Positions 4,994-28,742 are shown, numbered from the stretch's first letter. The stretch: 64,000 bases of DNA from Promethearchaeota archaeon (GCA_048938105.1 JBHLMN010000012.1:132876-196875), one strand, 5' to 3'. Made by a program: numbers and translations. The notes: a model not told the origin generated them from the sequence alone.

Positions 4994-5317
4994 AATTTTT
5001 AAAGTAAAATAATGAAATAAATAGTTTTTGTTTGAGTTATAAGTTTTACATTGTGAATATTATTAGTAATACAATAAAAAAGATCCAGGGATAGTTAAAA
5101 ATCACTCTAAATATCGTGGATGTATCCCCTTAAATTAGTCTCCGATTTAAGAAAATAAAAAGCTCTTTGACTTTTACTAATCAATATTGATTGCCTCTGA
5201 AAATTCTTAAAATAGTCTTGATTAGGTTAGACATTGCATAAACCTAAATCCAAATAAAGCGAACAAAAAAGAAAAAAGTAGTTCCAACTTTCATAAAAAG
5301 ATAAGGAACGAGGGGTT

Positions 5318-5770: not shown

Positions 5771-5801
5771 GCTTATAATTCAGAGAATTTAAATTGACTT
5801 T

Positions 5802-6482
5802 GTGAGAGATCTTTCAAAAATAACAATAGTCATTCAAATGATCCTTGCTGTTCCATTCATCATCATTTTTGCAGGAGTAATGCTCTTCATTCCAGCTGGA
5901 ACAATTGATTGGATCGAGGGGTGGATTTATATCCTTTTATTAATTGTTTACTACCTTACTATGACTATATATTTAATTATCAAGGATCCATCAACACTGA
6001 GAAAACGTAAAAAACTGTCTACTAGTAAGATTGAAAATTTTTTCCTTGTTATTCTGGGTTTGTTGTTCTTTCCATTGATAATTATGCCAGGCTTTGATTA
6101 TAAATTCCAATGGACACAATTACCAAGTTTAGTTAGGATAATTGGGTTTTTTGGGCTTGTATTCTCATATATCATTAACTTCTGGGTCATGAAAGTAAAT
6201 TCTTACGCTTCAAAAGCTCTAATAATACATGAAAATCATATAGCAATAACGATTGGACCCTATGGAATCGTACGACATCCAATGTATGTGAGTTTTATAC
6301 TTCTAGCTTTTAGTACGCCAATTGCACTCGGTTCATTAGTATCCATACTCTTGGCGATACCAATACCCTTTTTACTTGTCTTTCGGATCCGTAAAGAAGA
6401 AGAAATGTTAAAGAAGAACCTTTCAAGCTATATTGAATATACCGAAAAAGTTCGTTATCGTTTAATTCCCAAAATATGGTGA
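5802..6482 (+). CDS. ICMT/PEMT-family membrane methyltransferase-like protein
   Basis: GPYGIVRHPMYVSFILLAF followed by RKEEEMLKKNL..YIEYTEKV. Multi-TM. GTG start in the track. Confidence 0.65.
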   Translation: MRDLSKITIVIQMILAVPFIIIFAGVMLFIPAGTIDWIEGWIYILLLIVYYLTMTIYLIIKDPSTLRKRKKLSTSKIENFFLVILGLLFFPLIIMPGFDYKFQWTQLPSLVRIIGFFGLVFSYIINFWVMKVNSYASKALIIHENHIAITIGPYGIVRHPMYVSFILLAFSTPIALGSLVSILLAIPIPFLLVFRIRKEEEMLKKNLSSYIEYTEKVRYRLIPKIW

Positions 6483-6573
6483 TTAGTAATGAAAAAGAGT
6501 TCGGATTGAGAAATATCTATTTTTCAACTCTAATACTAATAAATTAAGCCTTATTCCAAATGAAAAAAAGAAA

Positions 6574-7209
6574 TCATAAAAATTGGCCCATCTCTCTAAT
6601 ATATGGAAGAAAAGAAGGTGTCCTATTAACACATTGCTGATATACTTCTCCAACTCTCTTAATTAAATCTTTATCTTCCATCTTTGCTCCAATAATGAAA
6701 GGAATGAAAGAAATCAATGCAATAAAGATTGCTAATAGATTATTCTTCAATAGAGCTAAACCTATAGCGAGAAAAAAATCTCCAGGATACATAGGGTGAT
6801 GAATATAGGAATAGATATCAGAAGTGACAGCCACTCCTTCTTCGGGAAATAACATATGGATCCCTAATCCATGTGCAATTTCATCAAATCCTGTTTTGCG
6901 TAGATGCTTCTCTAATAAAAACCGCATTAGAATGAAAAATATCCCTCCAATAAGAGCAGCTCAAAAAGGTATTAAAATTAGGCCGTTTATTAAAAGAGTA
7001 TGGAATATACAGGTATTGCCAGTAATAAGAACTGGAATTACATAATGAAAAAAGAAGTATCGATACGCTAAATCCCCATGTTTCTCTCGATAAGCCTTGC
7101 CTTTTGTAGCGAAACCAATAAAAAAGGACAAAGTGATGAGTACGAAAATCAATTGACAAATAATAGCCCCATACCAAGCTAAACCATCAAACCACCAGAA
7201 AATCCCCAT
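6574..7209 (-). pseudogene. ICMT/PEMT-family gene interrupted by an in-frame TGA (6961-6963)
   Basis: ORFs 6961..7209 and 6574..6927 are in the same frame (both upper ends divisible by 3), and my reading joins them as ...LILIPF-TGA-AALIGGIFFILMRFLL.... The distal part carries YIHHPMYPGDFFLAIG and MEDKDLIKRVGEVYQQ. The same frame continues upstream to the ATG at 7320 through a second in-frame stop (TAA at 7267-7269). Confidence 0.55.
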
Positions 7210-11272: not shown

Positions 11273-11914
11273 TCATATCAAAGAGAATTGAATCACTACA
11301 AAGAGCATGATACTAAATGTAATTACTGAAATCACTGTGTCGAATTTTCCTGTCTTTAGAAATGGGATAAATAATGGAGTTTTGCTTTTATAACTAGTAT
11401 AATCAGCGCCAAATTTCTTCAATAGGTACTGATCTTCTATAAGTGCAAGAATAATATAAGCCAGTAGTTGTAAATACCATAGTATTATTGTTTCTTCCGC
11501 TGACAGCCAACTCATACCAAAAAAGAAAGTAATATAAAAATAACTCCACCCTGTCAAGCCAATTGTCAAAAGTAGAAGACCAGTATACTGGGGATGTCTT
11601 ATAAATCGATAAGGGCCAGAGGTGACTAATCCCCTTCTCTTTTTTACGCCGAGATAAACAATTGAATAAATTATCAATACAACGCTTATCATAATCAAAA
11701 TTTTCCCAAAGAATACCTCATTAAAATTGAGAAGGCTGGCATAGCCTTCAATGATACTGCTAGAAAGATTGGGAACCAAGGCACCCAATAACAGAATTAC
11801 AGGAGCAGCCATGAGTGGTATCCATACCCAGATTCCTGGAAGTTGCTGAACTAAAAGAAATAAATATCCAGCCGTGCCAAAAACAATAGCTTGAGCTCTC
11901 TCTAGTTTTTTCAT
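11273..11914 (-). CDS. ICMT/PEMT-family membrane methyltransferase-like protein
   Basis: GPYRFIRHPQYTGLLLLTIG followed by EDQYLLKKFGADYTSYKSKTP. Multi-TM. Confidence 0.65.
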   Translation of the reverse strand: MKKLERAQAIVFGTAGYLFLLVQQLPGIWVWIPLMAAPVILLLGALVPNLSSSIIEGYASLLNFNEVFFGKILIMISVVLIIYSIVYLGVKKRRGLVTSGPYRFIRHPQYTGLLLLTIGLTGWSYFYITFFFGMSWLSAEETIILWYLQLLAYIILALIEDQYLLKKFGADYTSYKSKTPLFIPFLKTGKFDTVISVITFSIMLFVVIQFSLI

Positions 11915-12886: not shown

Positions 12887-13828
12887 TTAGCTTAATATTT
12901 CAATTAATTTGACCAAATCCTCTTTATTGATGGCAACAACATCTGCTTCAGGAAATATATTGCGGTTGTTTTCTGAAATTCCCTGTCCTCCGATTGCAAT
13001 ACGAATTTGGTTTTTGAAAACATTATGTAAATACTCTAAATTTCGTTTAAGAGTACCAAGATATAACGGAAGGGTAATGGAGATAAATATCCAATCAGGT
13101 AATTCAGGAAGATCTTTGATATATTTGATTAAGGATTGGATGGGTAAAGCTCGCCCCAGATTAATAATCTTGTAATTTAAATCCCGAAGAATATATTCTA
13201 AGGCAAATAAACTGAGAACATGTCTTTCACCTTCTACAGGTACTAAAATGATAATTCCTTTTTCCTCTATATTTTCATTTACTGGTATTCTTGCAACGAT
13301 TAGCTCTTCAACGCGATTAGAAATAATGTGTTCTTCCGCAGTTGAAAGATTCGCTTGAGCCCATTGTACACCGACCTCATGCATTAGTGGTGTGATAAAA
13401 TCAACAATAAAGGGTGTACTATTAGGAAACATTGATTCTATGTTTACTGAGAACTCCTCAACATCATAATTTGATGATTTCAGATATCTGATCATTTCTT
13501 GTATGGAGGCTAATTTTAAAACAGAGGGTTTTTCTATTCTTCCTTTCTCCTCAGGCTTCTTCTTTTCTTTTAATATCTCATTCTCATGTATATATAGTTC
13601 TTTGATTAGATCATCAGTTAAATATACAACAGTATACCGCCCCCGTTTAAGTGGGCGTCGTTCGATTTCGATATAACCTTGTAAATTTAGTTCTTTTATG
13701 GCATTAGAAATTGTTGAACGTTTAAGATCTAAATTGGATGCAAGTTCAGAAACAGGGACTTCCCTTCCGCGATTTTGCCTTAAGTATCGAAAAATACGAT
13801 CTCTGGCTGGTAATTGGACATTTTCCAT
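12887..13828 (-). CDS. CarH/LitR-like cobalamin-binding (putative light-sensing) regulator with an N-terminal winged-helix domain
   Basis: N-terminal wHTH (VPVSELASNLDLKRSTISNAIKELNLQGYIE). W156-x9-E166-H167 lies in VQWAQANLSTAEEHII. The B12-binding Rossmann part has GIIILVPVEGERH203VLS, ISITL and IAIGGQG. The gene sits immediately downstream of crtB. Confidence 0.7.
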   Translation of the reverse strand: MENVQLPARDRIFRYLRQNRGREVPVSELASNLDLKRSTISNAIKELNLQGYIEIERRPLKRGRYTVVYLTDDLIKELYIHENEILKEKKKPEEKGRIEKPSVLKLASIQEMIRYLKSSNYDVEEFSVNIESMFPNSTPFIVDFITPLMHEVGVQWAQANLSTAEEHIISNRVEELIVARIPVNENIEEKGIIILVPVEGERHVLSLFALEYILRDLNYKIINLGRALPIQSLIKYIKDLPELPDWIFISITLPLYLGTLKRNLEYLHNVFKNQIRIAIGGQGISENNRNIFPEADVVAINKEDLVKLIEILS

Positions 13829-13897: not shown

Positions 13898-14842
13898 CTA
13901 AAGTTTACGAAGGTACTCTAAACGTACTTTAGTTGCCAAAATAATCTTTCTTAGTTTAGAAACAACTGCCCGTTGATTTAATATTTGATAATCAATTCTT
14001 TTTATCTCATTTAGAATTTCCCCATAGACTCTTGAGGCCACTTTTACAGTATAAGCTCCTGCAGGTGGTAATTCCTCAATACCAAGATCAGCTATCTTAT
14101 AAAGAGCTTTCGCTCGCTCTGATTCGTAACGAATGAGTGATTTGAGGTTCTCATTCACTTTATCACCCCTTAGATCCTCAATCGTAACCTGATAATCATT
14201 CCGAGTTTCTTCTGGTAGATATATTCGCCCCTTGAGGAAATCCTCTTTGATATCTCTTAATATATTGGTTAATTGCATTGCTCTACCTAGATCTGCAGCT
14301 CGTGCTAGAGTTCGTTTTTCTGGATTTTTGATGAAGATGTGAGTCATCATTAAACCAACAGTACTTGCAACCCGATACATGTATAAGTCAAGTTCTTCTT
14401 CTGAATAGTACTCGGTTTTTATAAGATCCATTCTCACACCTTCTATAAGCTCATGCATGTAATTAACTGGAATTTGATGTTTACGTAACGTATCTCCAAA
14501 GGCATGAAGGATAGGATTTGTAGAGCTATATCCATTGGCCAATTTTGTTATAGTACTTTTCAATCGATCAAGTTCAAAATTAATCTTATCAATCGTAATC
14601 CCCTTAGGGGCTTCATCAACTATATCATCACTTAAACGACATATAGCATAGAGAGCAGCAACGCTTTTACGCTGATCTTCAGGTAAAAATCGACTAGCGA
14701 AATAGAATGACTTGCTATGCTCTATCATCCAGTCTAGACAGATTTGATAGCTTTCTTCAAGTGTTTCATCCATCAAACTATGTTTAGGTGTCGTACTTTT
14801 GGGAAGAAGTTCCCAATCAATTGTTTTGTGAGTTGAATACAT
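13898..14842 (-). CDS. crtB: Phytoene synthase
   Basis: Squalene/phytoene synthase motifs FYFASRFLP, YAICRLSDDIVDE (first Asp-rich) and NILRDIKEDFLKGRIYLP (second Asp-rich). Confidence 0.85.
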   Translation of the reverse strand: MYSTHKTIDWELLPKSTTPKHSLMDETLEESYQICLDWMIEHSKSFYFASRFLPEDQRKSVAALYAICRLSDDIVDEAPKGITIDKINFELDRLKSTITKLANGYSSTNPILHAFGDTLRKHQIPVNYMHELIEGVRMDLIKTEYYSEEELDLYMYRVASTVGLMMTHIFIKNPEKRTLARAADLGRAMQLTNILRDIKEDFLKGRIYLPEETRNDYQVTIEDLRGDKVNENLKSLIRYESERAKALYKIADLGIEELPPAGAYTVKVASRVYGEILNEIKRIDYQILNQRAVVSKLRKIILATKVRLEYLRKL

Positions 14843-14977: not shown

Positions 14978-16561
14978 GTGAGAAAAATGAGTAATGGACA
15001 TAATAAACGTAATATAGCCTTTGATAATAAAAACCCTGAAACGTTTCTCGAATCAGTGGTAATTATAGGCTCTGGGATTGGTGGACTGGCGGCGGGAATA
15101 CGCCTTCAGACAACAGGAAAATTTAATGTTACTATTATAGAAAAACTAGACCAAGTTGGTGGTCGGGCCAGAGTCTTTAAAGATCAAGGGTTTACTTTTG
15201 ATGGAGGTCCTACGGTAATAACTGTACCTGACATTTTTAAGGATTTATTTACTTTACCTGGTCGAAAAATGGAGGATTATGTCGAATTAATACCAGTGGA
15301 GCCGTTTTATCGAATCCATTTTAACGATGGGACATTTTTTGATTATTCTACTCCGGAAAAAAATATACCTCAAATTGAAAAAGTAAATCCTGAAGATGTA
15401 GAAGGATATAAACGCATGCTTAAAGCAGTTCGACCGATCTACGAGAAGGGGTTCAAAGAATTATCATTTAAACCTTTTAACAAGTTTACTTCAATGCTTA
15501 AAGTAGCTCCCTCCCTCATCAAGTTACAATCATACCGTTCAAATTATAAATTTGTCTCTAAATATATAAAAAATGAGAATCTCCGAATGGTATTTAGTTT
15601 TCACCCTTTACTTATTGGGGGGAATCCTTTCTCGGTTCCATCAATTTATAGTCTTATTCAATACCTGGAAAAAGAATTTGGAGTTTGGTTTGTGCGTGGT
15701 GGTACAAATGCTTTAGTTCAGGCGTTAGCAAACTTATTTGAGGAGCTTGGGGGTAAAATCATTTTGAATAGTGAGGTTAAAAAAATTGAAGTTAAAGATA
15801 ATCAAGTAGAGGGCGTTTTAACTGTTTCGAATGATTTTTATCCAAGTAAAATCGTAATAAGTAATGCTGACCCCGCTTTTACATACACAAAAATGATTGA
15901 TGCAGAGTGGCGCAGGAAAAACAGTGATAAGCGTTATAAAAAAGCGAAATATTCTATGGGATTAGTTGTAATTTATTTTGGAACGAAAAGACAATATCCA
16001 AATATGAAACATCACACTATTATTTTGGGTCCCCGGTATAAAGGACTAATAGAAGATATTTTCAAGAAAAAGATTTTAGCAGAAGATTTTTCGAGCTATT
16101 TACATCTCCCCACTCGGACTGATCCAAGTTTAGCTCCTGAAGGACATGAAGCCTTTTATATCCTGATTCCCGTCCCTCATCAAGATTCTGGTATTAATTG
16201 GGAAGAAATGGCTGAACCATTTAAACAACGAATCTTTGATTTTCTGAATGAAAATTATCTCCCTGAACTAAAAGAGAACTTAGTGACAGAGCGAATTTTT
16301 ACTCCTCTAGATTTTGAACGAGACTATAATAGCTTTAAAGGATCTGGTTTTTCTGTTGAACCAATTTTTACTCAATCAGCGTGGTTCCGTCCACATAACA
16401 AATCTGAAGATATTGATGGTCTTTATTTAGTGGGTGCTGGAACCCATCCAGGAGCAGGATTGCCTGGAGTTGTCTCCAGTGCAAAAGTAACCACAGATTT
16501 GATCATCAATGGGAAAAATGGATTTTCAAAAAAACCCTCTGGAATAAGTAATGCTAATTAG
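14978..16561 (+). CDS. crtI: Phytoene desaturase
   Basis: N-terminal FAD fold VVIIGSGIGGLAAGIRLQ, C-terminal LYLVGAGTHPGAGLPGV, and the length and order typical of CrtI. The track start is a GTG; the ATG at 14987 is likely. Confidence 0.85.
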   Translation: MRKMSNGHNKRNIAFDNKNPETFLESVVIIGSGIGGLAAGIRLQTTGKFNVTIIEKLDQVGGRARVFKDQGFTFDGGPTVITVPDIFKDLFTLPGRKMEDYVELIPVEPFYRIHFNDGTFFDYSTPEKNIPQIEKVNPEDVEGYKRMLKAVRPIYEKGFKELSFKPFNKFTSMLKVAPSLIKLQSYRSNYKFVSKYIKNENLRMVFSFHPLLIGGNPFSVPSIYSLIQYLEKEFGVWFVRGGTNALVQALANLFEELGGKIILNSEVKKIEVKDNQVEGVLTVSNDFYPSKIVISNADPAFTYTKMIDAEWRRKNSDKRYKKAKYSMGLVVIYFGTKRQYPNMKHHTIILGPRYKGLIEDIFKKKILAEDFSSYLHLPTRTDPSLAPEGHEAFYILIPVPHQDSGINWEEMAEPFKQRIFDFLNENYLPELKENLVTERIFTPLDFERDYNSFKGSGFSVEPIFTQSAWFRPHNKSEDIDGLYLVGAGTHPGAGLPGVVSSAKVTTDLIINGKNGFSKKPSGISNAN

Positions 16562-17385
16562 TGGAAGAAATTGTAATGTTAACATATTTCATCTTCCTCC
16601 TTTTCTTTATTGTTATACCTTTGATGGTAATCAGTTTTTTTTATTATAAGAAATATCGTGGAGGGGAAGAATATCAAAAAACGATGATAAAAAAAATCTT
16701 AATTGTGTTAGCGATATTAATAATTGTAGCTATTACTTATACTACTCCATGGGATAATTTTCTCGTCGAAAATGGCATTTGGTATTATGAGACATCGAAA
16801 GTTATGGGTATTTTAATTGGTTTTGTACCCATTGAAGAATATGGCTTTTTCGTATTGCAGACTCTCTTTATTGGATTGCTATTCGGATGGATTCTGCTTC
16901 ATAGAAAGAAAATCAGTCATAATCAGAATAATTTTAGAGTTAATTTACGCCTGATTTCAGCGATTGGGCTACTTATTGTTTGGATTGTAGGATTTCTTGC
17001 ATTTATTAACAGAATAGAAACTTTAACTTATCTGAATTTAATCCTTTTATGGGGAATACCTCCAATAATGATTCAACTGATCTATGGCGCTGATATTCTC
17101 TGGTTGTACAATCGAGACCTTATCTCAGTCATCTCTCTCTCAACTATTTACTTAGCTATTGCAGATACTATTGCGATTGCAGATGGAATCTGGACAATTA
17201 GTATAAATACATCAACAGGGATTCTTTTGGCTGGAGTTTTACCTATTGAAGAGTTTGTCTTTTTCTTGGTCACTAATATATTAATTACTTTTGGATTAAC
17301 CTTAATGATTGATTCTAGGAGTATTGATAGATTTCATCAATACTTTTCTAGATTAAAAGAACACAAGTGGAGAAATAAGTTATGA
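16561..17385 (+). CDS. crtY: Lycopene cyclase, fused CrtYc/CrtYd (heterodimer-type) domains
   Basis: Polytopic protein with two repeats of the lycopene-cyclase-domain pattern (TPWDNFLVENGIWYY ... PIEEYGFF; second half PIEEFVFF). Likely ATG at 16576. Follows crtI directly. Confidence 0.75.
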   Translation: MEEIVMLTYFIFLLFFIVIPLMVISFFYYKKYRGGEEYQKTMIKKILIVLAILIIVAITYTTPWDNFLVENGIWYYETSKVMGILIGFVPIEEYGFFVLQTLFIGLLFGWILLHRKKISHNQNNFRVNLRLISAIGLLIVWIVGFLAFINRIETLTYLNLILLWGIPPIMIQLIYGADILWLYNRDLISVISLSTIYLAIADTIAIADGIWTISINTSTGILLAGVLPIEEFVFFLVTNILITFGLTLMIDSRSIDRFHQYFSRLKEHKWRNKL

Positions 17386-17502: not shown

Positions 17503-17955
17503 ATGTTAAATAACGTAATAGAATATCTTAATGAGTCTGTAATACCTTTGCGGCTTTCTGGTACCACTAAATCAGGCTGGCCATTTGTAATGAGCCTTTG
17601 GTATGTTTATTTAAATGAAAAAATTTACTTAGCAACTATAAAATCAGCTAAAGTCGTTGATTATCTTTCTAATAACCCCAAATGTGCTTTTGAAATTGCC
17701 AGTGATACTCCACCTTATTGTGGGATTCGAGGACAAGCAATGGCAAAAATTATTGAATCTAAGGGGGATGAAATTCTAAAAATCCTTCTAAATCGTTATC
17801 TAGGAGGAGAAAATAGTCCTTTAGCCCGAAGACTGTTGAATCAACGTATACCAGAGGTTGCGATTGAGCTTACTCCTGTTAAAGTGTATCAATGGGATTA
17901 TAGTAAGCGAATGATTGACTCGATTGAATTTTCTTCAGTTAAAAAGTGTCCATAA
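17503..17955 (+). CDS. PPOX/FMN-binding split-barrel family protein
   Basis: About 150 aa. GWPFVMSLWYVYLNEKIYLAT and IRGQAMAKI resemble PPOX-like proteins. Confidence 0.45.
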   Translation: MLNNVIEYLNESVIPLRLSGTTKSGWPFVMSLWYVYLNEKIYLATIKSAKVVDYLSNNPKCAFEIASDTPPYCGIRGQAMAKIIESKGDEILKILLNRYLGGENSPLARRLLNQRIPEVAIELTPVKVYQWDYSKRMIDSIEFSSVKKCP

Positions 17956-17992
17956 ATAAGAACGATAAAAAAACCAGTAAAAAGGTGATATT

Positions 17993-18412
17993 ATGTCAGA
18001 TATCAAATATTCTGCTGGAGTATGCAATATCGGTGACGCTGAAATAAAACAAAGACGTCGATTAGGATATATAGGCATTGGTCTTACTGTGATAGCAATT
18101 ATTGTATATTTAGGATTGATTTATTCTATAAAATTAGATCCATTCTTTGGAGTGATTATTTTCATACCTGCTGAAATGTCAGCTATTGGGTTAATTCAAG
18201 CTAGGAACAAATTTTGCGCTGCTTATGGATTGATTCACCAACAGAACGTTTCCTCAAGCTTAGGCTTAACTGTGAAAATAGGCAATAAAAATTCCCAGAG
18301 AAAGGATAGGAACAAAGCTCTTAAAATTATTTTTCAATCCCTAGTAATTGCGATTATCATTACTGTTTTTACAGTTATTGGAGGGATTTTGATAGCTCAA
18401 AGTATTATTTAG
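17993..18412 (+). CDS. Small membrane protein (3 TM), unknown function
   Basis: Hydrophobic helices. The N-terminal CNIGDAEIKQRRRLG resembles YgaP-like/DUF2892 small membrane proteins (weak recollection). Confidence 0.35.
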   Translation: MSDIKYSAGVCNIGDAEIKQRRRLGYIGIGLTVIAIIVYLGLIYSIKLDPFFGVIIFIPAEMSAIGLIQARNKFCAAYGLIHQQNVSSSLGLTVKIGNKNSQRKDRNKALKIIFQSLVIAIIITVFTVIGGILIAQSII

Positions 18413-18501: not shown

Positions 18502-19239
18502 TTAAAAAATTCGTCCTAGTGACGCGTCTAAGATTTTTCCAGTCATTAGAGGAGTAGTTGCAGCAAATTCTATCATTTCATTCAAATCCTTAGGTAATAA
18601 TGGGTAATTAAGAAGCTGTTTTGATATTAATTTCGATGATAGAACCTCAATTGTTGTACCATTATCCATAGATTTCTTTTCCAATTCTCTATTATGTCGA
18701 TCCGTAAAAACATATGTAGGAGAAACTCCGTTAATTCGAATTTTGGGAGCCAAAACTCTAGCCATTGTACGAATTAAATAGACTAATCCAGCTTTCGCAA
18801 CTCCATAAGGCATTTTATCCAATGAAGGTTCATAAGCAGCAGAACTAACGATATGTACTATAGCTCCGCCTTCTATCATAAGTTCAGCTGCCATTCTTGT
18901 TAATAAGAAAGCAGATGTTAGATTCACATTTATTACACGATTGAAAAATGAAGCATCCACTTCTAATGGATTTTTTGAAGCCAAGGATCCCCCTATATTA
19001 TTTATCAGAATGTCTATTGATCCAATTTTAGTCTGTACCCATTTCTTTACCTTTCTAATTCCTTCCTCGGTTGTGCAATCAGCTGCAATATTATTAATTC
19101 CTGGAAAACGATCATTTATCATATTTAGACTGGATATGAGAACCTCATTATTCTGATTAGAAAGTTTTCTCATAATTGCCTCTCCAATCCCTCCAACAGC
19201 AACACCAGTAACTAGAATTTTCTTATTTTCGATGATCAT
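18502..19239 (-). CDS. Classical short-chain dehydrogenase/reductase (SDR)
   Basis: TGxxxGxG (ILVTGVAVGGIGEAI), NNxG-like LINNIGG, catalytic S...YGVAK (YxxxK). Confidence 0.8.
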   Translation of the reverse strand: MIIENKKILVTGVAVGGIGEAIMRKLSNQNNEVLISSLNMINDRFPGINNIAADCTTEEGIRKVKKWVQTKIGSIDILINNIGGSLASKNPLEVDASFFNRVINVNLTSAFLLTRMAAELMIEGGAIVHIVSSAAYEPSLDKMPYGVAKAGLVYLIRTMARVLAPKIRINGVSPTYVFTDRHNRELEKKSMDNGTTIEVLSSKLISKQLLNYPLLPKDLNEMIEFAATTPLMTGKILDASLGRIF

Positions 19240-19284
19240 GATTAATTTCCTCAGTTATGTTGTTAATGGTTTAATTTATTACAT

Positions 19285-19773
19285 CTAGTCATCTATTTTC
19301 AGAGTTTGAGTTTTAAGTAATTTATAATTTTTAGGAAATCCCCAATCTTCAATCTTATTGTAACTTGTTTTTTTTGATCGAAAATGTACCCATATTGTTG
19401 TACTATCAAGAAGTGGATTAGCATGGTAATGCTTTTGATCACCATATCGAAAAGCTTCTAGTACTAGGGGTAATTCCTGACGAAAAATTCTATCACGAAA
19501 CTTTAAAGGGCCAATTCCCCCACTTACTTGACAATAGACATGGAGTGAATATACATTTTCGGTTTTCAACCATTCAGCTAACACTTCATCCCGCATTATC
19601 CGTGTTTGCCATCCTTTTAGTTGTTTTTTGTTAAACTCATGGGCAATGGTGAGAAATAAATCTCCTGTCCGATCTGAATGGGTTAATGTATAGCAACGAG
19701 GTACTAGAGGAGAATCAATGGTTGTTGGGGGTATAAATGTAACATTTAGTTTATTTGGGTTTAAGCGATTCAA
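19285..19773 (-). CDS. Staygreen (SGR) family protein, Mg-dechelatase homolog
   Basis: PRCYTLTHSDRTGDLFLTI, QLKGWQTRIMRDEVLAEW, SLHVYCQVSGG, ELPLVLEAFRYGD and IWVHFRS...KIEDWG are collinear with the plant SGR core as I remember it (PRRYTLTHSD..., LQGW...RDEVVAEW, LHVHCHISGG, ELPVVLKAF.HGD, VWVYFHS...ECWG). Confidence 0.75.
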   Translation of the reverse strand: MNRLNPNKLNVTFIPPTTIDSPLVPRCYTLTHSDRTGDLFLTIAHEFNKKQLKGWQTRIMRDEVLAEWLKTENVYSLHVYCQVSGGIGPLKFRDRIFRQELPLVLEAFRYGDQKHYHANPLLDSTTIWVHFRSKKTSYNKIEDWGFPKNYKLLKTQTLKIDD

Positions 19774-19799
19774 GGTAGAAATCCTTCTATTTGAAAGAA

Positions 19800-21302
19800 C
19801 TAAGTTGTAGATAAATAATAGGGCTTAGGAGTAGAGCTTATTTTAGTATATGTAAGACTATCTCCAGGAATATCCCTACAAATTTCCTCTAACAGCTTTT
19901 TTGACAGCATGTCGAAAAATGGTTGGATCATAAACCAATAGGCTATCCCAATAAGCCCTTTTGGGACTATTCGAAAAATCTGATGAAGTTCAATTTTTTT
20001 GTGATTAATACGCCTTAAACGATATCTTAGGATGGTATAACCAGGTAAGATGAAATCTGTATGTAATGTTAATTCTTTCTTTGGAATTTTATTCTGAATT
20101 GAAAGAGGAGTCTTTTTCATCTCTCCCTTGTCCTTAAAACCTTTGAAAAAACCGTTTAGAAAAGCACCAAATTTCCATAAGTATAAATTGATCTGAAAAT
20201 TTCTATATTTCTCAATCTGAAGTAATTTGTTCCACAAATTCTCAGGATTACTAGTTAAAATAGCCTTACGATGATCTTGGAAGACAAATCCTCCAGACCA
20301 GGATGGATCCCCTGGAATGTGCCATTCAACGGGTAAATCATAATAGCTAGAATAACTTCCGTACCTAAGATACTGTTGGGGGTTTAATGCTAATCGAATT
20401 GCTTGTTTATGGTTTAGTAACTTCTGTGGAATCAATTCTCGTATCCTAAAATCATGACAAACAACCTCATTCTTCATTCCATCTATTAATGGACGAGCTA
20501 AAGATGATTGAATGCCTGTAATCAATCTTATCCAATAGGAGCTTAGGCTAGGAGTGAAGAAAGGGATAGGGAGAATTAAACGCTTTGGTAGTGCCATAAT
20601 TTCCACATAACTCTCCATAAACTGTTTATAAGTGATAATATCTGAACCACCAATATCAAAGGTCTCACCGATTGTTTCTGGTACATCTAAACAGTCAGTT
20701 AGATATTTCAGAACATTTCGAATAGCTATTGGTTGATTTCTTGTTCTAAGCCACTTGGGTGTAATCATAATTGGCAATCTATTGACTAGATACCTCATCA
20801 TCTCAAAAGCTGCGCTTCCACTCCCAATAATAATTGCTGCACGTAACGTTGTAACTGGTACTGAACATGAATTCAGTATTCTGGAAACTTCGATTCGAGA
20901 CTGTAGATGCTTACTTAATTTTTCTTTTTCGTCCCCTAATCCCCCAAGATAAATAATTCTTTCAATTGCTGCCTTTTCAGCTGCAATTATTGTGTTTTGG
21001 GCTGCAATTCTATCAGATCTAATAAAATCTTTTATTTTTCCTTCCATAGAATGGATTAAATAGTAAACCGAGGAGACTTCTTCCATTGCGTCTTCTAAGG
21101 TTTTAATATCGAAAACATTAAGATTTACCGTTTTCAAATTCCTATGATGACTCCATAATCTCATATTTAGCTTGTCTTTTGACCTAAACCCCACTCGTAC
21201 AATATATCCTTTCTTTAAGAGTTTTGGTACAAGTCTGGAACCTATGTAACCTGTGGCCCCAAGTACAAGAACTTCTTTTTGTTTCAAGGGAAATCTACTC
21301 AT
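19800..21302 (-). CDS. NAD(P)-binding Rossmann protein (atypical/extended SDR, NmrA/epimerase-like) with a long C-terminal extension (DUF2867-like?)
   Basis: N-terminal VLVLGATGYIGSRLVPKLLKKGY (GxxGxxG). The roughly 200-aa C-terminal part has no motif I can name; the DUF2867-like assignment is from memory of similar architectures. Confidence 0.55.
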   Translation of the reverse strand: MSRFPLKQKEVLVLGATGYIGSRLVPKLLKKGYIVRVGFRSKDKLNMRLWSHHRNLKTVNLNVFDIKTLEDAMEEVSSVYYLIHSMEGKIKDFIRSDRIAAQNTIIAAEKAAIERIIYLGGLGDEKEKLSKHLQSRIEVSRILNSCSVPVTTLRAAIIIGSGSAAFEMMRYLVNRLPIMITPKWLRTRNQPIAIRNVLKYLTDCLDVPETIGETFDIGGSDIITYKQFMESYVEIMALPKRLILPIPFFTPSLSSYWIRLITGIQSSLARPLIDGMKNEVVCHDFRIRELIPQKLLNHKQAIRLALNPQQYLRYGSYSSYYDLPVEWHIPGDPSWSGGFVFQDHRKAILTSNPENLWNKLLQIEKYRNFQINLYLWKFGAFLNGFFKGFKDKGEMKKTPLSIQNKIPKKELTLHTDFILPGYTILRYRLRRINHKKIELHQIFRIVPKGLIGIAYWFMIQPFFDMLSKKLLEEICRDIPGDSLTYTKISSTPKPYYLSTT

Positions 21303-21314
21303 TCTAAGAGGACA

Positions 21315-22085
21315 TCAATAATCTTGACGAGCTTTCCAGAAATCACCATAAAAGAAAAATCCAATCAGTTGAGAAAATACGAATATTATTGATATAACTA
21401 TTCCTAAATACTGTAATATAAGAATTTGATTACTATGGAAGATATACAGAGGGATAAAGTTCAATAAGAACCAAATCCACGAAAGAATTGGAGCAGATAT
21501 GAACATAAGAGATCTTTTCCATTTTGAAACAGATAAGAAGGAACTCAAATCATATTTTATTCCAAAAATAGGAAGTTTCGTTATAGGTGTCCAAGCTAGC
21601 AAGTTTGATTTACGAAATGTGGATTTGAAAATAAAATAATTTCTAAAGTTTAATCCTAAAAGAAAACCAAATATGCAATGGATTACGGTATGAGAGAGCA
21701 TAAAGTTTACAAAACTGATTAGAAAGAACAAAATAACACTAAACCAAAAATCTACAGAAAAATAAAAGGCTAAAAAATAAAGAATTTCTGAGATGAGAAC
21801 ACCAACTGAGAATAGTAAAGTTCCGACTTTAATTGAAAATTTTGGAACGTTCCAACTATCGAAGAAGAATTCATCAATTCTCCCTAAAATATCTATTTCT
21901 TCCTCTGTTATTTTTACTTTTCGTGCATATTTTACAGCAGTTTGATATTTTCTCCAATGACTCTTCCGATTTAATGTTCCTGTTTCATATGAATCCTCTA
22001 AATCCTTGATATTCCTACTAAAATTAGTGTTATCCATTTGAGAACCTTCCCTAGAACTGTAGTTCTTATTAGTTATACTTAACAT
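21315..22085 (-). CDS. Membrane protein (about 5 TM) with an intramembrane HxxxH motif, unknown function
   Basis: Soluble charged N-terminus of about 75 aa, then TM helices. LSHTVIHCIFGFLLG sits in a helix. The gene lies 59 nt downstream of heliorhodopsin. Confidence 0.5.
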   Translation of the reverse strand: MLSITNKNYSSREGSQMDNTNFSRNIKDLEDSYETGTLNRKSHWRKYQTAVKYARKVKITEEEIDILGRIDEFFFDSWNVPKFSIKVGTLLFSVGVLISEILYFLAFYFSVDFWFSVILFFLISFVNFMLSHTVIHCIFGFLLGLNFRNYFIFKSTFRKSNLLAWTPITKLPIFGIKYDLSSFLSVSKWKRSLMFISAPILSWIWFLLNFIPLYIFHSNQILILQYLGIVISIIFVFSQLIGFFFYGDFWKARQDY

Positions 22086-22144
22086 TATAATTCTAGTGAT
22101 CGAGGTTTGAAAATAAAAAGAGGGGAAGGATCATAATGACCCAA

Positions 22145-22957
22145 TTAAGCAAATATTAACCCCATAAATACAATCCAAGCTAATGCTGATTTTGCAAAGA
22201 GGCTTAATAATTGATAACCTCGTTCTCCATATAGATAATCTTTCCATGGGCCTATTTTCTTATACTGAAGAAACATATTCAAGGCAAAGCTGTTAAAGAA
22301 GACGAAATAAACTACTAAGGCAATATAGACAAAAGTAGGAACTTCTCGTCCAACTGTGTTAATACTCAAGAATGTATCAAGGATGACGATCCAGGGCATT
22401 ATTCCAGCTATCCATCCTAGGATATAAGGAGCCCAGCTTGTTTTTTCAGTATATTGGTTATAAGTCTCCATTAACAACCCAAACATGTTCATTAATCCAT
22501 TAAGCACGAATATCAGAGCAAGAATCCAAAATTCTAGTATTCCAAAAGCTAAAGCAATGAATATGATCATCACTGAACTGGAAAAAGCATACTCATACCA
22601 ACGTACTGGATTCATTTCTTTCTTTAAATTGGTAACATATTTGTTATATAATGGAAAAGCAATCAGTAAATGAGCAATAGCTGACATTAGAAGAAAACTA
22701 GCAAGCAGGATACCTGCAATGTTTTCAAAAGTGAAAAAAACTTCGGGGATAGGCTCAAGAACTGGACGAGTACCAGTTAATTCTTTTATTCCTAAATACG
22801 ACCTATAAATGTCGATTTTGAAGTTTTTTATTTCATCAATTACTAAACTCAGAGCAAATATAACTGTTGCTTGCACTAAGTGCAAGATACCCATGGCTAT
22901 ATTGAATTTCCGGAGATAGGAAAATGATATTTTTGACTTTTCAATGTTAGTTGACAT
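22145..22957 (-). CDS. Heliorhodopsin
   Basis: Seven-TM protein collinear with heliorhodopsin 48C12 as I recall it. LRKFNIAMGILHLVQ matches LQNFNRIAGVFHLLQ. NPVRWYEYAFSSSVMIIFIA matches NIFRWVEYSLSSSVMIVLIA (counterion Glu = E122, codon 22592-22594). FFNSFALNMFLQYKKIGPWKDYLYGERGYQLLSLFAKSALAW matches FFNSFALVQYLQYKGKGKWSNYLRGERAYIVLSLVAKSALAW (Schiff-base Lys = K256, codon 22190-22192). Confidence 0.85.
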   Translation of the reverse strand: MSTNIEKSKISFSYLRKFNIAMGILHLVQATVIFALSLVIDEIKNFKIDIYRSYLGIKELTGTRPVLEPIPEVFFTFENIAGILLASFLLMSAIAHLLIAFPLYNKYVTNLKKEMNPVRWYEYAFSSSVMIIFIALAFGILEFWILALIFVLNGLMNMFGLLMETYNQYTEKTSWAPYILGWIAGIMPWIVILDTFLSINTVGREVPTFVYIALVVYFVFFNSFALNMFLQYKKIGPWKDYLYGERGYQLLSLFAKSALAWIVFMGLIFA

Positions 22958-23176
22958 TAAGCAACCTCCTATGGATTTAGACAGAAGAGTCCTTCTTTAT
23001 ATATTCATTATGATAATTAAAACGTAAATCACCAATAAATCTAGATCTAGAATTAATGACTTGAATCAGGATGAAGTTCTATTACTGAAAAAATAAAGAA
23101 TCTATTATAATGTGAACCTAAAACTTGCTGATTGATGAACTAGTACTTCTAAAATCACAAAGAATGGTGAAGGCTG

Positions 23177-23953
23177 ATGTCTCTTACAAAACAAAAACAA
23201 TTTTTGATTTATGGTAACATCTTGAGCTTTTTATTAACTATCGTGATGAATTCTTTAGCCAACATCCTTCCTTTGAATGGAAAAACAACTGCAGAACTCA
23301 GTGACTCTTTCCCTAACTTATTTGTCCCCGCTGGGTATGTTTTTAGTATCTGGGGATTGATCTACATTTTATTAGCAATTTTCACGGTTTCCCAAGCCCT
23401 TCCCAAGTATAGAGAGGAGGATGTTATTGAAAAAATCTCCTATTTCTTTATTATAAGCAATCTGGCTAATTCATCATGGATTGTATTTTGGCACTTTGAA
23501 ATAATAATCGCATCCTTATTGGTTATGTTGATACTCCTTGTATCTTTAATACTAATCTATACCCGATTAGAAATTGGAAAGAAGCCCGTGAGTGAAAAAA
23601 TTAAGATCACTTCTCATATCCCATTTAGTGTTTACCTGGGATGGATTACTGTTGCAACTGTTGCAAATGTTACAGCTTTACTTGTATCAATAAACTGGGA
23701 TGGTTTTGGCATAAGTGAAGTCATCTGGACTGCAGTTGTAATAAGTGTTGCAACAATAATTGCACTAGTTATCGTATTCACCCGGAAAGACTATGCCTAC
23801 GTTCTTGTCCCCGTCTGGGCTTTTATAGGAATAGCAGTAAAGCAATTAAATACTCAAAACGATGTTGTTATAATTTCTGTTATAGCAGCAGTTATTTTAG
23901 TCATAACATTGCTTGTTAGACTTTCATTGGATTTAGTTCAGAATCGAAAATGA
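23177..23953 (+). CDS. TspO/MBR-related (tryptophan-rich sensory protein-like) membrane protein
   Basis: LFVPAGYVFSIWGLIYILLAIF, NSSWIVFWHFE and PFSVYLGWITVATVANV resemble the roughly 260-aa TspO-like family found in bacteria. Confidence 0.5.
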   Translation: MSLTKQKQFLIYGNILSFLLTIVMNSLANILPLNGKTTAELSDSFPNLFVPAGYVFSIWGLIYILLAIFTVSQALPKYREEDVIEKISYFFIISNLANSSWIVFWHFEIIIASLLVMLILLVSLILIYTRLEIGKKPVSEKIKITSHIPFSVYLGWITVATVANVTALLVSINWDGFGISEVIWTAVVISVATIIALVIVFTRKDYAYVLVPVWAFIGIAVKQLNTQNDVVIISVIAAVILVITLLVRLSLDLVQNRK

Positions 23954-24834
23954 ATGATAATAATTTTAGATCACTAATTACTTCACTCATAATAATATGC
24001 ATTGCTGCATGTCTTGCACTCATTGGTAGCCACAGGGGTATAACTGTTTTTGGTGGAATACCAGTATTTGCACTTGGAGTAGCTATTGCCTTTATAATTC
24101 AATGGATTGCGTTTATACCTGCTTATATCAAAAGAACAGAGAAATTTTTCGATTTGACTGGCTCTTTGACTTACAGTATTGTGATTATTTTTTCAGTTGT
24201 TTTGAGTTCTGAAATCAATATACGATCTATTTTACTGATGTTTTTGGTCTTGATCTGGGCGATTCGCCTTGGTATGTTCTTGTTTAGGAGAATACTGAAA
24301 GAGGGTGAGGATAAACGCTTCAAGGAAATCAAAGAATCAGGTTCGCGTTTTCTATTAACTTGGACTCTTCAAGGTTTGTGGGTTAGCTTTACATTAGCAG
24401 CTGCATTGGCTGCGATCACAGTAAAACAGAGGGTAGAATTTGGCGTCTTTGGTTTAATTGGTCTTCTGGTTTGGATCATAGGCTTTGGATTTGAAGCTGT
24501 TGCAGACTATCAGAAGAGTAAATTCAGATCTATTCCTGAAAACAAAGGAAAATTTATTACTACTGGATTATGGTCGATATCACGACATCCCAATTACTTT
24601 GGAGAGATCCTCCTATGGATCGGTATTGCAATCATTGCACTTCCAACACTTCAAGGTTGGAGATGGCTAACACTAATTTCTCCTATTTTTGTCACATTAT
24701 TATTGACCAAGGTTAGTGGTATTCCATTACTTGAGAAACATGCAGATGAAAAGTGGGGTGGTCAGGAGGAATATGAGCAATACAAAAGTAAGACTCCAGT
24801 ATTAATCCCAAGGCCATTCTTCAAATCAAATTAA
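23950..24834 (+). CDS. DUF1295 / steroid 5-alpha-reductase-ICMT superfamily membrane protein
   Basis: GLWSISRHPNYFGEILLWIG and EEYEQYKSKTPVLIP. Overlaps the TspO-like gene by 4 nt (ATGA). Confidence 0.65.
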   Translation: MNDNNFRSLITSLIIICIAACLALIGSHRGITVFGGIPVFALGVAIAFIIQWIAFIPAYIKRTEKFFDLTGSLTYSIVIIFSVVLSSEINIRSILLMFLVLIWAIRLGMFLFRRILKEGEDKRFKEIKESGSRFLLTWTLQGLWVSFTLAAALAAITVKQRVEFGVFGLIGLLVWIIGFGFEAVADYQKSKFRSIPENKGKFITTGLWSISRHPNYFGEILLWIGIAIIALPTLQGWRWLTLISPIFVTLLLTKVSGIPLLEKHADEKWGGQEEYEQYKSKTPVLIPRPFFKSN

Positions 24835-26468: not shown

Positions 26469-27239
26469 ATGTATATCGAAAAAGATGAAAATAAAACTCT
26501 AGGGGAGGAAATTAGAAGTGAAAACTCCATCAATTTAGTAGTGACAACTTTTCTATTAGGTGTGAGCATTTATGTAGTGGCCCAGCTTATCGGAATATTT
26601 CTTACTACTGAATCATTTGGTCCAATTATCGAAGGAGGAAATGTGTCAAAACTGTTATTAACTCAGTCAATGTTTCTGTTTCTCTCTCTTGTCACTATAT
26701 TTTTTCTGACTAAAGGAAAATTAACTCACTATGGATTAAATAAACCTATCGGAGCAGTAAAATGGGGATATATTATTGGATTAGGATTATTGATTGGTTC
26801 AATTGCTACCATCCTCATTATTGTAACAGGAGCAAATGGAAATCCTGCTTTAACAGGTCTAGGTATTAGAGAAAAAATAGTCTTACTTTGGTTTTTAGCT
26901 AGTATAGCAGAAGAAGTTTTCGTTAGAGGTTTATTACAGGGGTATCTGAATCCTCTAGAGGGTATGAAAATTAGTATTGGTAAGCAAAATTTCTCATATC
27001 CAGTTGTTTTCAGTGCTATATTTTTTGGTACCATCCATCTACCGCTAGTATTTTTTGGGGCAGACCTTATCACAATTTGTATTATCTTTTCAATGACAAT
27101 AACTCTGGGTTTCTTTACAGCCTCTTTACGAGAGAAATATCAAAGTATATTACCTTCAATTGGCATTCATATTACAACAAATATTGGAGGAACAATGCTA
27201 GGTCCAATAATATATGCAATCTTGGTAGGATCAATTTAA
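26469..27239 (+). CDS. CPBP family (CAAX-protease/Abi-like) intramembrane metalloprotease
   Basis: EEVFVRGLLQ (EExxxR), FGTIH and a late conserved His (IGIHITTN) in a polytopic protein. Confidence 0.65.
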   Translation: MYIEKDENKTLGEEIRSENSINLVVTTFLLGVSIYVVAQLIGIFLTTESFGPIIEGGNVSKLLLTQSMFLFLSLVTIFFLTKGKLTHYGLNKPIGAVKWGYIIGLGLLIGSIATILIIVTGANGNPALTGLGIREKIVLLWFLASIAEEVFVRGLLQGYLNPLEGMKISIGKQNFSYPVVFSAIFFGTIHLPLVFFGADLITICIIFSMTITLGFFTASLREKYQSILPSIGIHITTNIGGTMLGPIIYAILVGSI

Positions 27240-27309
27240 TTGGGATCCCCATCAATAGGTGAATAATTCGTTCTCTTAAGTTGTTTCAAGGTCAATATGT
27301 AGTTTCTGA

Positions 27310-27435
27310 TCCCAAAGGTTAAGCTAGCTCCCAAATTCAATGACATTTATTCCAGTAATCATCCCAATCTCACTGGAATAGATCATATTTTTTTTCATTC
27401 TATTTCGATAATATAATTTCATATAGGACTCCCAA
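27310..27435 (+). repeat. Array of four TCCCAA boxes upstream of the second CPBP-like gene
   Basis: TCCCAA at 27310, 27329, 27362 and 27430, all on the same strand, in an otherwise very AT-rich 318-bp intergenic region. Confidence 0.35.
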
Positions 27436-27557
27436 GGAAACCCATGAATTCATTCAGGGAAGGAATTGGGGATGGAAAAAAGATTATTTGCATTATTATT
27501 AACAAAACATTATAAATAAAAAAAAACATTAAATGATATTTGTTTGTGCAGTAGGAT

Positions 27558-28742
27558 ATGGAAAATCAAAATAAAGGAAGTAGTTGGTTTATTTTCTCTA
27601 CACCAGCTATTCTTGCTGCGGGTTATCTTTCATTGCAATTTTTAATCGAATTCCTTGTAGCATTGCTGCTTTTTATCGTTCAATTAACCGATGATATTGT
27701 GATAAGTAAGTTTATTGTCTTAATTATTAGTCAGATGCTTCTTACCGTGATAATTATCTTTGTGATAACCCCTTTCCTGAAAATTAAAGATGTTGAGTTT
27801 ACTACTGTTAGCTATACTAGTTTTCTAAAATTTATTGCAGTTTTTTGTCTATTCTGGGCGATTACGATACCTATTACCCTAATTTTTTCAGTTTTTTCCA
27901 CTAATTTCAGTATAGGGGAAGCAATCTATGAAAAAACATTACCACTGTCGATCGGTCATCGTGGAAATCTATTCTCAGTCATCATGTGGTTACTAGCTGG
28001 TACTCTAAGCTTTGCCATATTTATGGAATATTTATTTCGAAGAACATTGATACCATTATTCGAAAAGCGTGGTTTATCTCCTTTTGCTGCAGTTATCACT
28101 TCAAGTATTGCTTTTGCTTTAGTTAGCATACCAAATTATCTCGGAATCCAACTAACAATTCTTACAGAATCCAACTTATTAATTCTATATTTTAGTAGAT
28201 ATGGATTATTAAATTCACTTTTCTGTTCCTTAAACCTTTTTATGACAACATTTATCCTTGGAATGGCTTGTGGAATTGTATATATCCTAACAAGAAATGT
28301 CATATTTTCAATTATGGTACATTGTCTTGGTATACTTCCCTACTACTTGATAGATTTATTTCATGATAATATTATGTTCGATTTATTGTTAGGTATTTTA
28401 ATTATTGTGATTAACATTTCAGGCCTTCTTGTTGCCTTATTCACGAGTCATACTATTTTTAAAGCTTCATCCCAGACTGACTGGATTACTATCCTTAAGA
28501 AAAAGTCGGAAGTAAACATCAATCGCGGAATAACTGGATTCTTTATTACTTTTTGGGGAATAATTATTAATATTGTGATATTCATTGGTTTACTTGCCGA
28601 ACATGCTCCTATTATAGTTGCTCTATTGTTTAATATTATATTTCTTGGATTTTGCACTAAATATTTACGAGAAGATTCAATAGAGGATAAATCACCCACT
28701 GATCATAATGAAATGAAAGAATATGGTGAAATAAGTGAATAG
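27558..28742 (+). CDS. CPBP family-like intramembrane protease (divergent)
   Basis: MEYLFRRTLIP (E-x-x-x-R with the first Glu pair degenerate) and SIMVHCLG in a 394-aa polytopic protein. Confidence 0.45.
   Translation: MENQNKGSSWFIFSTPAILAAGYLSLQFLIEFLVALLLFIVQLTDDIVISKFIVLIISQMLLTVIIIFVITPFLKIKDVEFTTVSYTSFLKFIAVFCLFWAITIPITLIFSVFSTNFSIGEAIYEKTLPLSIGHRGNLFSVIMWLLAGTLSFAIFMEYLFRRTLIPLFEKRGLSPFAAVITSSIAFALVSIPNYLGIQLTILTESNLLILYFSRYGLLNSLFCSLNLFMTTFILGMACGIVYILTRNVIFSIMVHCLGILPYYLIDLFHDNIMFDLLLGILIIVINISGLLVALFTSHTIFKASSQTDWITILKKKSEVNINRGITGFFITFWGIIINIVIFIGLLAEHAPIIVALLFNIIFLGFCTKYLREDSIEDKSPTDHNEMKEYGEISE

Follow-up and report, generated by a model that had tools for sequence, protein, structure and literature searches.

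We analyzed a 64,000-nucleotide (nt) stretch of DNA from a Promethearchaeota archaeon (GCA_048938105.1 JBHLMN010000012.1:132876-196875), hereafter called the window, in which a heliorhodopsin (HeR) gene heads a string of five minus-strand genes that includes a homolog of the Mg-dechelatase Staygreen (SGR). An original prediction from the DNA sequence had proposed this string as a co-directional cluster. Listing of the open reading frames (ORFs) together with Pfam and NCBIfam profile scans showed that the cluster is real: the five ORFs run from 22957 to 18502 at the coordinates predicted earlier, with spacers, in the order of transcription, of 59, 12, 26, and 45 nt. The profile scans covered about 45 ORFs of the window (1-40 kb). 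The predicted identities of the HeR, the SGR homolog, the classical short-chain dehydrogenase/reductase (SDR), and a 500-residue protein with a GxxGxxG motif also held in the profile matches and motifs. The host is an Asgard archaeon, as judged from the closest relatives of the SGR protein, which carry the names Promethearchaeota, Hermodarchaeota, Hodarchaeota, and Heimdallarchaeota. The G+C content was about 33% across the window, and searches of the window for tRNAs and Rfam families found none. The features discussed below are listed in Table 1.

Table 1. The five-gene string and surrounding features of the window
Feature	Position	Strand	Remarks
Gene 1, HeR	22145-22957	minus	270 aa; first of the string
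Gene 2, orphan HxxxH membrane protein	21315-22085	minus	256 aa
Gene 3, NDUFA9-like atypical extended SDR (SDR500)	19800-21302	minus	500 aa
Gene 4, SGR Mg-dechelatase homolog	19285-19773	minus	162 aa; TTG start
Gene 5, classical SDR	18502-19239	minus	245 aa; last of the string
Divergent intergenic region, HeR/TspO-like	22958-23176	both	probable promoters
TspO/MBR-like membrane protein	23177-23953	plus	258 aa; divergent from HeR
DUF1295/steroid-5-alpha-reductase-like membrane protein	23950-24834	plus	PF06966, 2.1e-70
Two small genes, PNPOx-like protein (150 aa) and 139-aa membrane protein	17503-18412	plus	weak PNPOx_N match
Lycopene cyclase (domain protein)	16561-17385	plus	CarR_dom, 111 bits
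crtI	14978-16561	plus	crtI_fam, 604 bits
crtB	13898-14842	minus	SQS_PSY, 1.7e-73
Winged-helix (HTH_11/MarR) and B12-binding (PF02310) regulator	12887-13828	minus	adjoins crtB; Pfam

The product of gene 1 matched the HeR family PF18761 (2.4e-85, 286 bits; cutoff 26.7) and the NCBIfam HeR equivalog NF038020 (302.9 bits; cutoff 100), and its nearest solved structure was that of TaHeR (6IS6, 3e-61). Lys-256 in the last helix (SLFAKS) and Glu-122 in helix 3 (RWYEY) were invariant in an alignment of 10 SGR-linked HeRs; from knowledge of the family, we take these residues to be the retinal Schiff-base lysine and its counterion, respectively. The original prediction had described HeRs as lacking a generally accepted cellular function. 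This statement is dated and only partly current, since binding and regulation by HeRs have been reported for the products of adjacent genes, namely glutamine synthetase, a photolyase, and an ABC exporter (PMC9529153, PMC9769723, PMC11109279).

The SGR protein covered positions 2-147 of the 147 positions of PF12638 (5.5e-49, 166 bits) and aligned end to end with AbSGR-h from Anaerolineae (PDB 7Y5Y; 1e-45, residues 1-152 against 1-154, ~58% identity), a full-length alignment that supports the TTG start of the gene. AbSGR-h, whose host (Anaerolineae SM23_63) is non-photosynthetic (PMC8531759, PMC11006732), dechelates chlorophyll (Chl) a, b, and c, chlorophyllide, and protochlorophyllide with low specificity (PMC11006732). 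Its activity is lost in the D34N and D62N mutants and weakened in H32A, and R26, Y28, T29, and D114 have been assigned as structural residues (PMC8531759). All of the AbSGR-h residues whose mutation abolishes or weakens activity are kept in the window SGR, in which D112 is the equivalent of AbSGR-h D114 and the other critical residues share the AbSGR-h numbering. In addition, R26, Y28, T29, T31, H32, S33, D34, T36, R61, D62, and E63 were invariant across 12 archaeal and bacterial SGR homologs. Mg removal is thus a predicted activity of the window SGR, the reaction itself having been demonstrated solely for the 58%-identical Anaerolineae protein. SGR homologs as such were already known in Chloroflexota and archaea.

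The gene neighborhood of SGR was surveyed in an alignment-based scan using one genome per species, which confirmed 507 loci, and the best 80 of these were examined. When the window proteins were used as tblastn queries, an HeR gene was found within 10 kb of SGR at 17 of the 80 loci (4 in Asgard archaea, 10 in Chloroflexota, 2 in Actinomycetes, and 1 in a single-cell genome of Thermoproteota). By a rough estimate, random placement of a single-copy gene in a genome of ~3,000 genes would yield less than one such locus among the 80. HeR stood directly upstream of SGR on the same strand at 11 of the 80 loci, which span Hodarchaeota, Anaerolineae, and Dehalococcoidales, with gaps of 17 to ~82 nt, and two further loci had the reverse order, with SGR preceding HeR. 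The pairwise distances of the HeR and SGR proteins co-varied (r = 0.88 over 16 loci) and fell into three deep groups (Asgard, Anaerolineae, and Dehalococcoidales/Actinomycetes), indicating that the pair has been kept over a long divergence or has moved as a unit.

Within the Asgard archaea, three layouts hold the pair together: HeR-x-x-SGR (the window and locus L011), SGR-MFS-HeR (L005), and HeR-SGR (L009 and L016). The order of all five genes was kept only in the closest relative(s), whose SGR is 86% identical. There, DUF1295 and TspO genes diverge from HeR, gene 2, SDR500, and SGR, which are followed by a small ORF on the opposite strand, the 245-residue SDR, a photolyase gene, UvdE, and the same two small genes as in the window. 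A Heimdallarchaeota chromosome (L005) carries DUF1295, a tocopherol-cyclase-like gene, SGR, an MFS transporter gene, HeR, an intervening ORF, UvdE, and a photolyase gene in this order, and in a Hodarchaeota metagenome-assembled genome SGR begins 27 nt after HeR, with SDR, photolyase, and UvdE genes nearby. The content of the island therefore varies between Asgard genomes. Together, these results indicate that the linkage between HeR and SGR extends well beyond this genome, and that the conserved unit is the HeR-SGR pair, whereas the five-gene operon, proposed originally as a unit, is specific to one lineage.

When all ORFs up to 6 kb from SGR at the 80 loci were clustered without preselection, the neighbors of SGR ranked as follows: photolyase (13 loci), HeR (12 loci, median gap 59 nt), MFS transporter (12 loci, median gap 70 nt), the SDR-DUF2867 family to which gene 3 belongs (11 loci), CrtI-like oxidase (11 loci), ABC ATPase (9 loci), MerR regulators with a B12-binding domain of the CarH/LitR type (8 loci by clustering, 8-10 overall), DUF1295 (7 loci), AhpC/TSA peroxiredoxin (7 loci by clustering, all on the same strand with a median gap of 32 nt, and ~19 by tblastn), TspO-like proteins (6 loci by clustering), alpha/beta hydrolase (6 loci), and DUF1722 (5 loci). 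On one Anaerolineae contig, crtI, crtB, a lycopene cyclase gene, an unassigned ORF, DUF1722, HeR, and SGR follow one another on a single strand; the two unknown ORFs of this operon encode a 165-residue protein without matches and the DUF1722 protein, neither being Blh. The ranking and this operon indicate that prokaryotic SGR genes live in photo-oxidative-stress islands.

Three further observations concern the SGR loci. In Heimdallarchaeota and Hodarchaeota, SGR has a gene of the tocopherol-cyclase family (PF14249) immediately upstream, and several Chloroflexota have one in its vicinity (L005:9000-9950, L012, L019, L053, L067, and L080), which hints at the synthesis of chromanol-type antioxidants in these islands. 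An AhpC/TSA gene directly precedes SGR in Thorarchaeota, Hermodarchaeota, Bathyarchaeia, and Thermoproteota with no HeR next to it (L023, L031, L034, L039, L054, L070, L075, and others). A Thorarchaeota SGR (53% identical; L006:7713-10461), also lacking HeR, directly follows two genes of the uroporphyrinogen decarboxylase (URO-D)/MtaA-like family, suggesting a possible tetrapyrrole or corrinoid connection.

The reciprocal survey, a metagenome scan with an HeR alignment, yielded 80 loci (L091-L170) with HeRs 46-94% identical to that of the window. Their commonest neighbor was a SOUL heme-binding protein (PF04832, 2e-40), present at 12-13 of the 80 loci and in most cases transcribed divergently from HeR, with a median of 228 nt between the two (e.g., L149:2443-2967, minus strand), followed by DUF6512 (8 loci); DrrA-like ABC ATPases, MsrA, PNPOx-like proteins, AhpC, SDRs, and fasciclin occurred at 4-7 loci each. 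Loci with HeRs of the Chloroflexota type carried families of the SGR islands, namely SDR-DUF2867, MerR with a B12-binding domain, TspO-like, DUF1295, and CrtI. This HeR clade is thus repeatedly accompanied by tetrapyrrole binders and oxidative-stress enzymes, with or without SGR. A literature search for heliorhodopsin together with SOUL found no relevant paper.

We next consider the other three genes of the string. Gene 2 matched no Pfam or NCBIfam family. Its own family is very rare (33 cluster representatives among 1.84 billion proteins in an exhaustive HMMER search) and is confined to a few Asgard genomes, with homologs in L011 and in L171, where a crtI-crtB-B12 regulator block recurs beside the gene 2 homolog. 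The original description of the product as a five-transmembrane protein with an HTVIH motif stood in part: the motif is an invariant HxxxH (H132 and H136) across 14 homologs, whereas the AlphaFold2 (AF2) model (pLDDT 89.9) is not a plain five-helix protein and combines an N-terminal helical bundle with about four long helices. The alignment also shows conservation of D71, G175, K177, R191, and a C-terminal GD..K. A comparison of the model with PDB folds gave no match (best E-value 1.1). Since the relative P0121 has 240 residues, the start of gene 2 may lie 16 codons further in. Assignment of gene 2 to the M50 or zincin-like proteins was considered and rejected, as the motif lacks a Glu and the fold has no match.

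The product of gene 3 contains NAD_binding_10 (3.9e-14), NmrA, Epimerase, and weak DUF2867 matches, with GATGYIG as its Rossmann motif, and its Rossmann half resembles the complex I subunit NDUFA9 (PDB 7ar7_P, 1.2e-11). The catalytic YxxxK of SDRs is replaced by an invariant H132xxxR136. Since both Tyr and Lys are thereby replaced, gene 3 encodes an atypical SDR whose redox activity is uncertain. Its C-terminal part is degenerate, the Asgard copies lacking the motifs of the bacterial DUF2867 domain. The SDR-DUF2867 family stands beside SGR at 11-15 of the 80 SGR loci. It was also observed directly upstream of HeR, with no SGR between them, in L057, L088, and L155 (Actinomycetes and one metagenomic contig), and may there correspond to the SDR group of HeR neighbors reported in 2024. 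Gene 5 matched adh_short (1.8e-31, 109.6 bits), and its translation shows an intact active site of a classical SDR (TGVAVGGIG, NNIG, the Ser of VSSAA, and YGVAK). It had been suggested that SGR is flanked by SDRs resembling chlorophyll b reductase. This suggestion found no specific support: the NCBIfam matches of gene 5, in a comparison that included no NYC1/NOL model, were generic (SDR/FabG/glucose dehydrogenase) and all below their cutoffs, its homologs lie near SGR only at Asgard loci (L009, L011, L015, and L016), and gene 3 is the NDUFA9-like protein without the catalytic Tyr.

Beyond the end of the string, 1-8 kb away, lie the carotenoid genes crtB, crtI, and the lycopene cyclase gene, and next to crtB the B12-binding regulator. 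The translated regulator carries a Wx9EH motif, WAQANLSTAEEH, as well as GERH. We take the Wx9EH motif to be the signature of CarH-type adenosylcobalamin photoreceptors, and the regulator resembles the light-sensing CarH/LitR repressors of bacteria, of which it may be the archaeal-type equivalent.

The carotenoid genes raise the possibility that the string serves chromophore supply, with the SDRs, the HxxxH protein, and perhaps SGR making or recycling retinal or a carotenoid for HeR, as blh does in proteorhodopsin-crtEIBY-blh operons. No Blh or carotenoid cleavage dioxygenase (CCD) was present among the scanned ORFs of the window, and the Anaerolineae operon likewise joins carotenoid genes to HeR and SGR. 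SDRs include retinol dehydrogenases, and gene 2, like Blh, encodes a membrane protein with a His motif. Nevertheless, we regard this explanation as improbable: SGR is a small soluble protein with an intact dechelatase site and a demonstrated Mg-dechelatase as its homolog, both HeR and crt genes are absent from many SGR loci, gene 2 occurs in few genomes and lacks a fold match, and gene 3 lacks the catalytic Tyr.

On the other side of the string, the TspO-like protein, whose homologs are labeled as tryptophan-rich sensory protein in the source records, scored 27.9 bits against PF03073 (cutoff 24), and 8 of 11 homologs also matched this family. Searches of the PDB by sequence, with both the single sequence and a profile, gave no match, and the assignment came from Pfam and fold comparison. 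The AF2 model (pLDDT 90.4) had RsTSPO (4uc3_A) and BcTSPO (4rym) among its best PDB folds; the RsTSPO match had a probability of 0.98 and a TM score of 0.68 on the target, though with a Foldseek E-value of ~1.0, and the five-helix core superposed on TSPO with TM scores of 0.64-0.68 on the target. TspO-like genes recur near SGR at 6-8 loci. The start of the DUF1295 gene overlaps the TspO-like stop by 4 nt, and DUF1295 recurs near both SGR and HeR at Asgard and Chloroflexota loci. Homologs of the two small genes adjoin photolyase, UvdE, and HeR in L011 and L015, and the homolog of the 139-residue membrane protein occurs without its PNPOx-like partner in L005, L009, L013, and L016. Elsewhere, the window is unusually rich in membrane enzymes resembling those of prenyl-protein processing (3445-6927, 11273-11914, and 26469-28742); these stretches contain four ICMT/PEMT-family methyltransferase paralogs and two Rce1-like CAAX protease paralogs, together with an LCM methyltransferase and an SRPBCC protein.

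We interpret the five genes as one lineage's version of a widespread, undescribed HeR-Staygreen association that resides in a light and photo-oxidative-stress island and provides a light-linked defense against Mg-tetrapyrrole photosensitizers, a reading whose chances we judge to be evenly balanced. In support of it, further genes related to tetrapyrroles or light stress surround the pair, with the TSPO-fold protein, the CarH-type regulator, and the carotenoid genes in the window and photolyase, UvdE, and peroxiredoxin in relatives. From this gene content we infer the following mechanism. Induction of the island by light would likely run through the CarH-type B12 photoreceptor regulator close by, with HeR probably serving as a membrane light sensor. 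The soluble SGR would strip Mg from environmental Mg-tetrapyrroles (chlorophylls, chlorophyllides, and related pigments) dissolved in the membrane of this non-phototroph. The three characterized pairs of HeR and partner suggest, by analogy, that SGR, the NDUFA9-like SDR, or both may associate with HeR at the membrane and become more active in light; the putative light gating of SGR, suggested at the outset, could take this form. Handling of the pigment and its products (binding, modification, or transfer) would be the task of genes 2, 3, and 5 together with the TSPO-fold and DUF1295 proteins. Singlet oxygen formed in the process would be quenched by carotenoids, and in relatives photolyase, UvdE, and peroxiredoxin would add to this protection. 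To our knowledge, the routes of chlorophyll detoxification must all begin with the removal of Mg.

Several observations weigh against this defense reading, and the first set comes from the surveys. Most of the 80 SGR loci have no HeR, and SGR of Thorarchaeota and Bathyarchaeia is paired instead with peroxiredoxin or URO-D-family genes. In the window itself, HeR and SGR are co-directional but 2.4 kb apart, with two genes between them. Conversely, SGR was present at only 4 of the 80 HeR-anchored loci, and a 94%-identical HeR (L091:4623-10803) lacks the rest of the cluster; it has a DDE transposase gene directly upstream, MsrA and PNPOx-like genes further upstream, and a Prok-JAB/ThiF (E1-like)/E2-like set downstream. 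The low count and this lone HeR indicate that the link between HeR and SGR is facultative and asymmetric. An alternative is that the genes became neighbors by shuffling in a variable genomic island and share no function. The insertion sequence (IS)-mediated rearrangement of HeR in L091 agrees with such an origin, as do the confinement of the five-gene order to the closest relatives and the differences in island content from genome to genome. Accident is nonetheless very unlikely, given the excess of HeR-linked SGR loci over the roughly estimated expectation, the adjacency kept across bacteria and archaea, and the functional coherence of the neighbor set.

The second set concerns transcription and chemistry. 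We read the spacers and intergenic signals by eye and with regular expressions. In the divergent region, the HeR strand carries TATATAAA ~46 nt and GGAGGT ~12 nt before the ATG. The spacer between HeR and gene 2 has a T5 run, a potential archaeal terminator; T-runs are absent from the other three spacers, and a T7 run follows gene 5. These signals fit a single putative promoter for the string with possible partial termination after HeR. A search for an operator shared by the HeR/TspO and crtB/crtI promoters and their orthologs, using 12-mers with up to 2 mismatches, found none, the 12-mers common to the two regions being AT-rich, TATA-like words alone. As for chemistry, pheophytin is itself a photosensitizer, and dechelation alone therefore does not detoxify. 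The scanned window ORFs included no Pfam equivalent of pheophytinase (PPH), the Rieske oxygenase PAO, or RCCR. The 58% identity of SGR to AbSGR-h and its conserved critical residues speak for the dechelation step. In addition, the authors who assayed bacterial SGR regard its dechelation of chlorophyll as a promiscuous side activity.

This last view also favors an explanation by co-regulation only, in which HeR and SGR belong to one light and oxidative-stress regulon without contacting each other, and the native substrate of prokaryotic SGR is, instead of a chlorophyll, another metal complex or an oxidized metabolite handled together with peroxiredoxin. By tblastn, AhpC/TSA is the most frequent neighbor of SGR and is immediately adjacent to it at HeR-less loci of TACK and Asgard archaea. 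HeR contexts are very diverse both in an earlier study (PMC8612252) and in our HeR-anchored loci, and a near-identical HeR occurs without the cluster. On the other hand, the short same-strand gaps between HeR and SGR in three deep lineages and their co-varying divergence are tighter than a regulon needs. The tested catalytic residues of SGR are strictly conserved, the homolog that was assayed shows high activity toward many Mg-chlorins and Mg-porphyrins, and the TSPO-fold and SOUL neighbors point to tetrapyrroles. We consider co-regulation without contact possible but doubtful; among the rival explanations it is the likeliest, ahead of chromophore supply, which in turn precedes chance.

The association between HeR and SGR appears to be undescribed, as originally suspected. 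No paper was found in literature searches that combined heliorhodopsin with staygreen (or stay-green), and a 2021 study of HeR contexts (PMC8612252) does not mention Staygreen. A classification from 2024 distinguishes ten groups of HeR neighbors, namely glutamine synthetase (GS), NAD synthetase, photolyase, MerR, TerC, ABC transporter, SDR, alpha/beta hydrolase, DUF2177, and DUF2238, and Staygreen is absent from these ten. Conversely, PMC8531759 does not contain the word "operon", and a 2026 SGR preprint uses none of the terms "gene cluster", "synteny", and "rhodopsin". Given this silence of the SGR papers, the HeR, photolyase, AhpC, and CarH neighborhood of SGR appears to be new information. 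Overall, the original interpretation is partly supported.

The HeR-SGR pair joins two questions, namely what HeR does in most organisms and why non-photosynthetic microbes keep a highly active chlorophyll Mg-dechelatase. If the defense reading is true, it defines a new class of HeR partner and revises the view of bacterial SGR chlorophyll activity as merely promiscuous; heterotrophs in sunlit sediments and mats would then defend themselves against the pigments of other organisms. An Asgard host is of added interest, as ingested chlorophyll is detoxified by heterotrophic eukaryotes as well. More tentatively, and with the chances leaning against it, this HeR clade as a whole could consist of light sensors of tetrapyrrole-photosensitizer defense in non-phototrophs, with interchangeable partners (SGR, SOUL, and TSPO-fold proteins), and the Asgard cluster, including the orphan gene 2 and the SDR that lacks the catalytic Tyr, could encode an undescribed route for disarming scavenged chlorophyll. 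A physiological role would thereby be assigned to HeR as well as to prokaryotic SGR.

Comparison with known systems places the individual components. Like TspO/MBR proteins (RsTSPO 4UC3 and BcTSPO 4RYM), the TspO-like protein is above the Pfam gathering threshold and has the five-helix core; unlike them, it is ~100 residues longer, has extra helices, and has no sequence-level PDB match, and its porphyrin binding is putative. As in CarH/LitR regulons, regulators combining MerR and B12-binding domains occur at SGR loci alongside crt genes and photolyase, and the B12-binding regulator of the window, with its Wx9EH, adjoins crtB. The window regulator differs in having a winged helix of archaeal type (HTH_11/MarR) instead of MerR, and no operator was found for it. 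The cluster shares with the plant PAO/phyllobilin breakdown pathway (NYC1/NOL, SGR, PPH, PAO, and RCCR) the homologous SGR step and nearby SDR-fold proteins, and avoidance of a phototoxic pigment is the likely purpose in both. In contrast to plants, the host does not synthesize chlorophyll, a rhodopsin gene is part of the cluster, and neither SDR shows evidence of NYC1/NOL likeness.

The closest relations are to AbSGR-h and to the HeR-partner operons. The window SGR is 58% identical to AbSGR-h over its full length, has the same H32, D34, D62, and structural residues, and likewise belongs to a non-photosynthetic host; it differs in that this host is an Asgard archaeon and that the archaeal protein is known from its sequence. 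The published HeR-partner operons (AbHeR-glutamine synthetase, PMC9529153; TfHeR-photolyase, PMC9769723; OcHeR-OmrDE, PMC11109279) have a partner other than Staygreen, whereas here the partner is Staygreen, two genes intervene in the window, and the system is known from its genes. In those operons HeR lies in a string with an enzyme or transporter gene, and so it does here; at 11 loci of relatives the partner, SGR, follows HeR directly and in the same direction, as in those operons, and four of the ten published groups of HeR neighbors (photolyase, MerR, SDR, and alpha/beta hydrolase) also occur in the HeR-SGR islands. The HeR-SGR pair is thus a real association, undescribed in the literature searched, and is a variant of the known theme of HeR with an adjacent partner rather than a new category of system.

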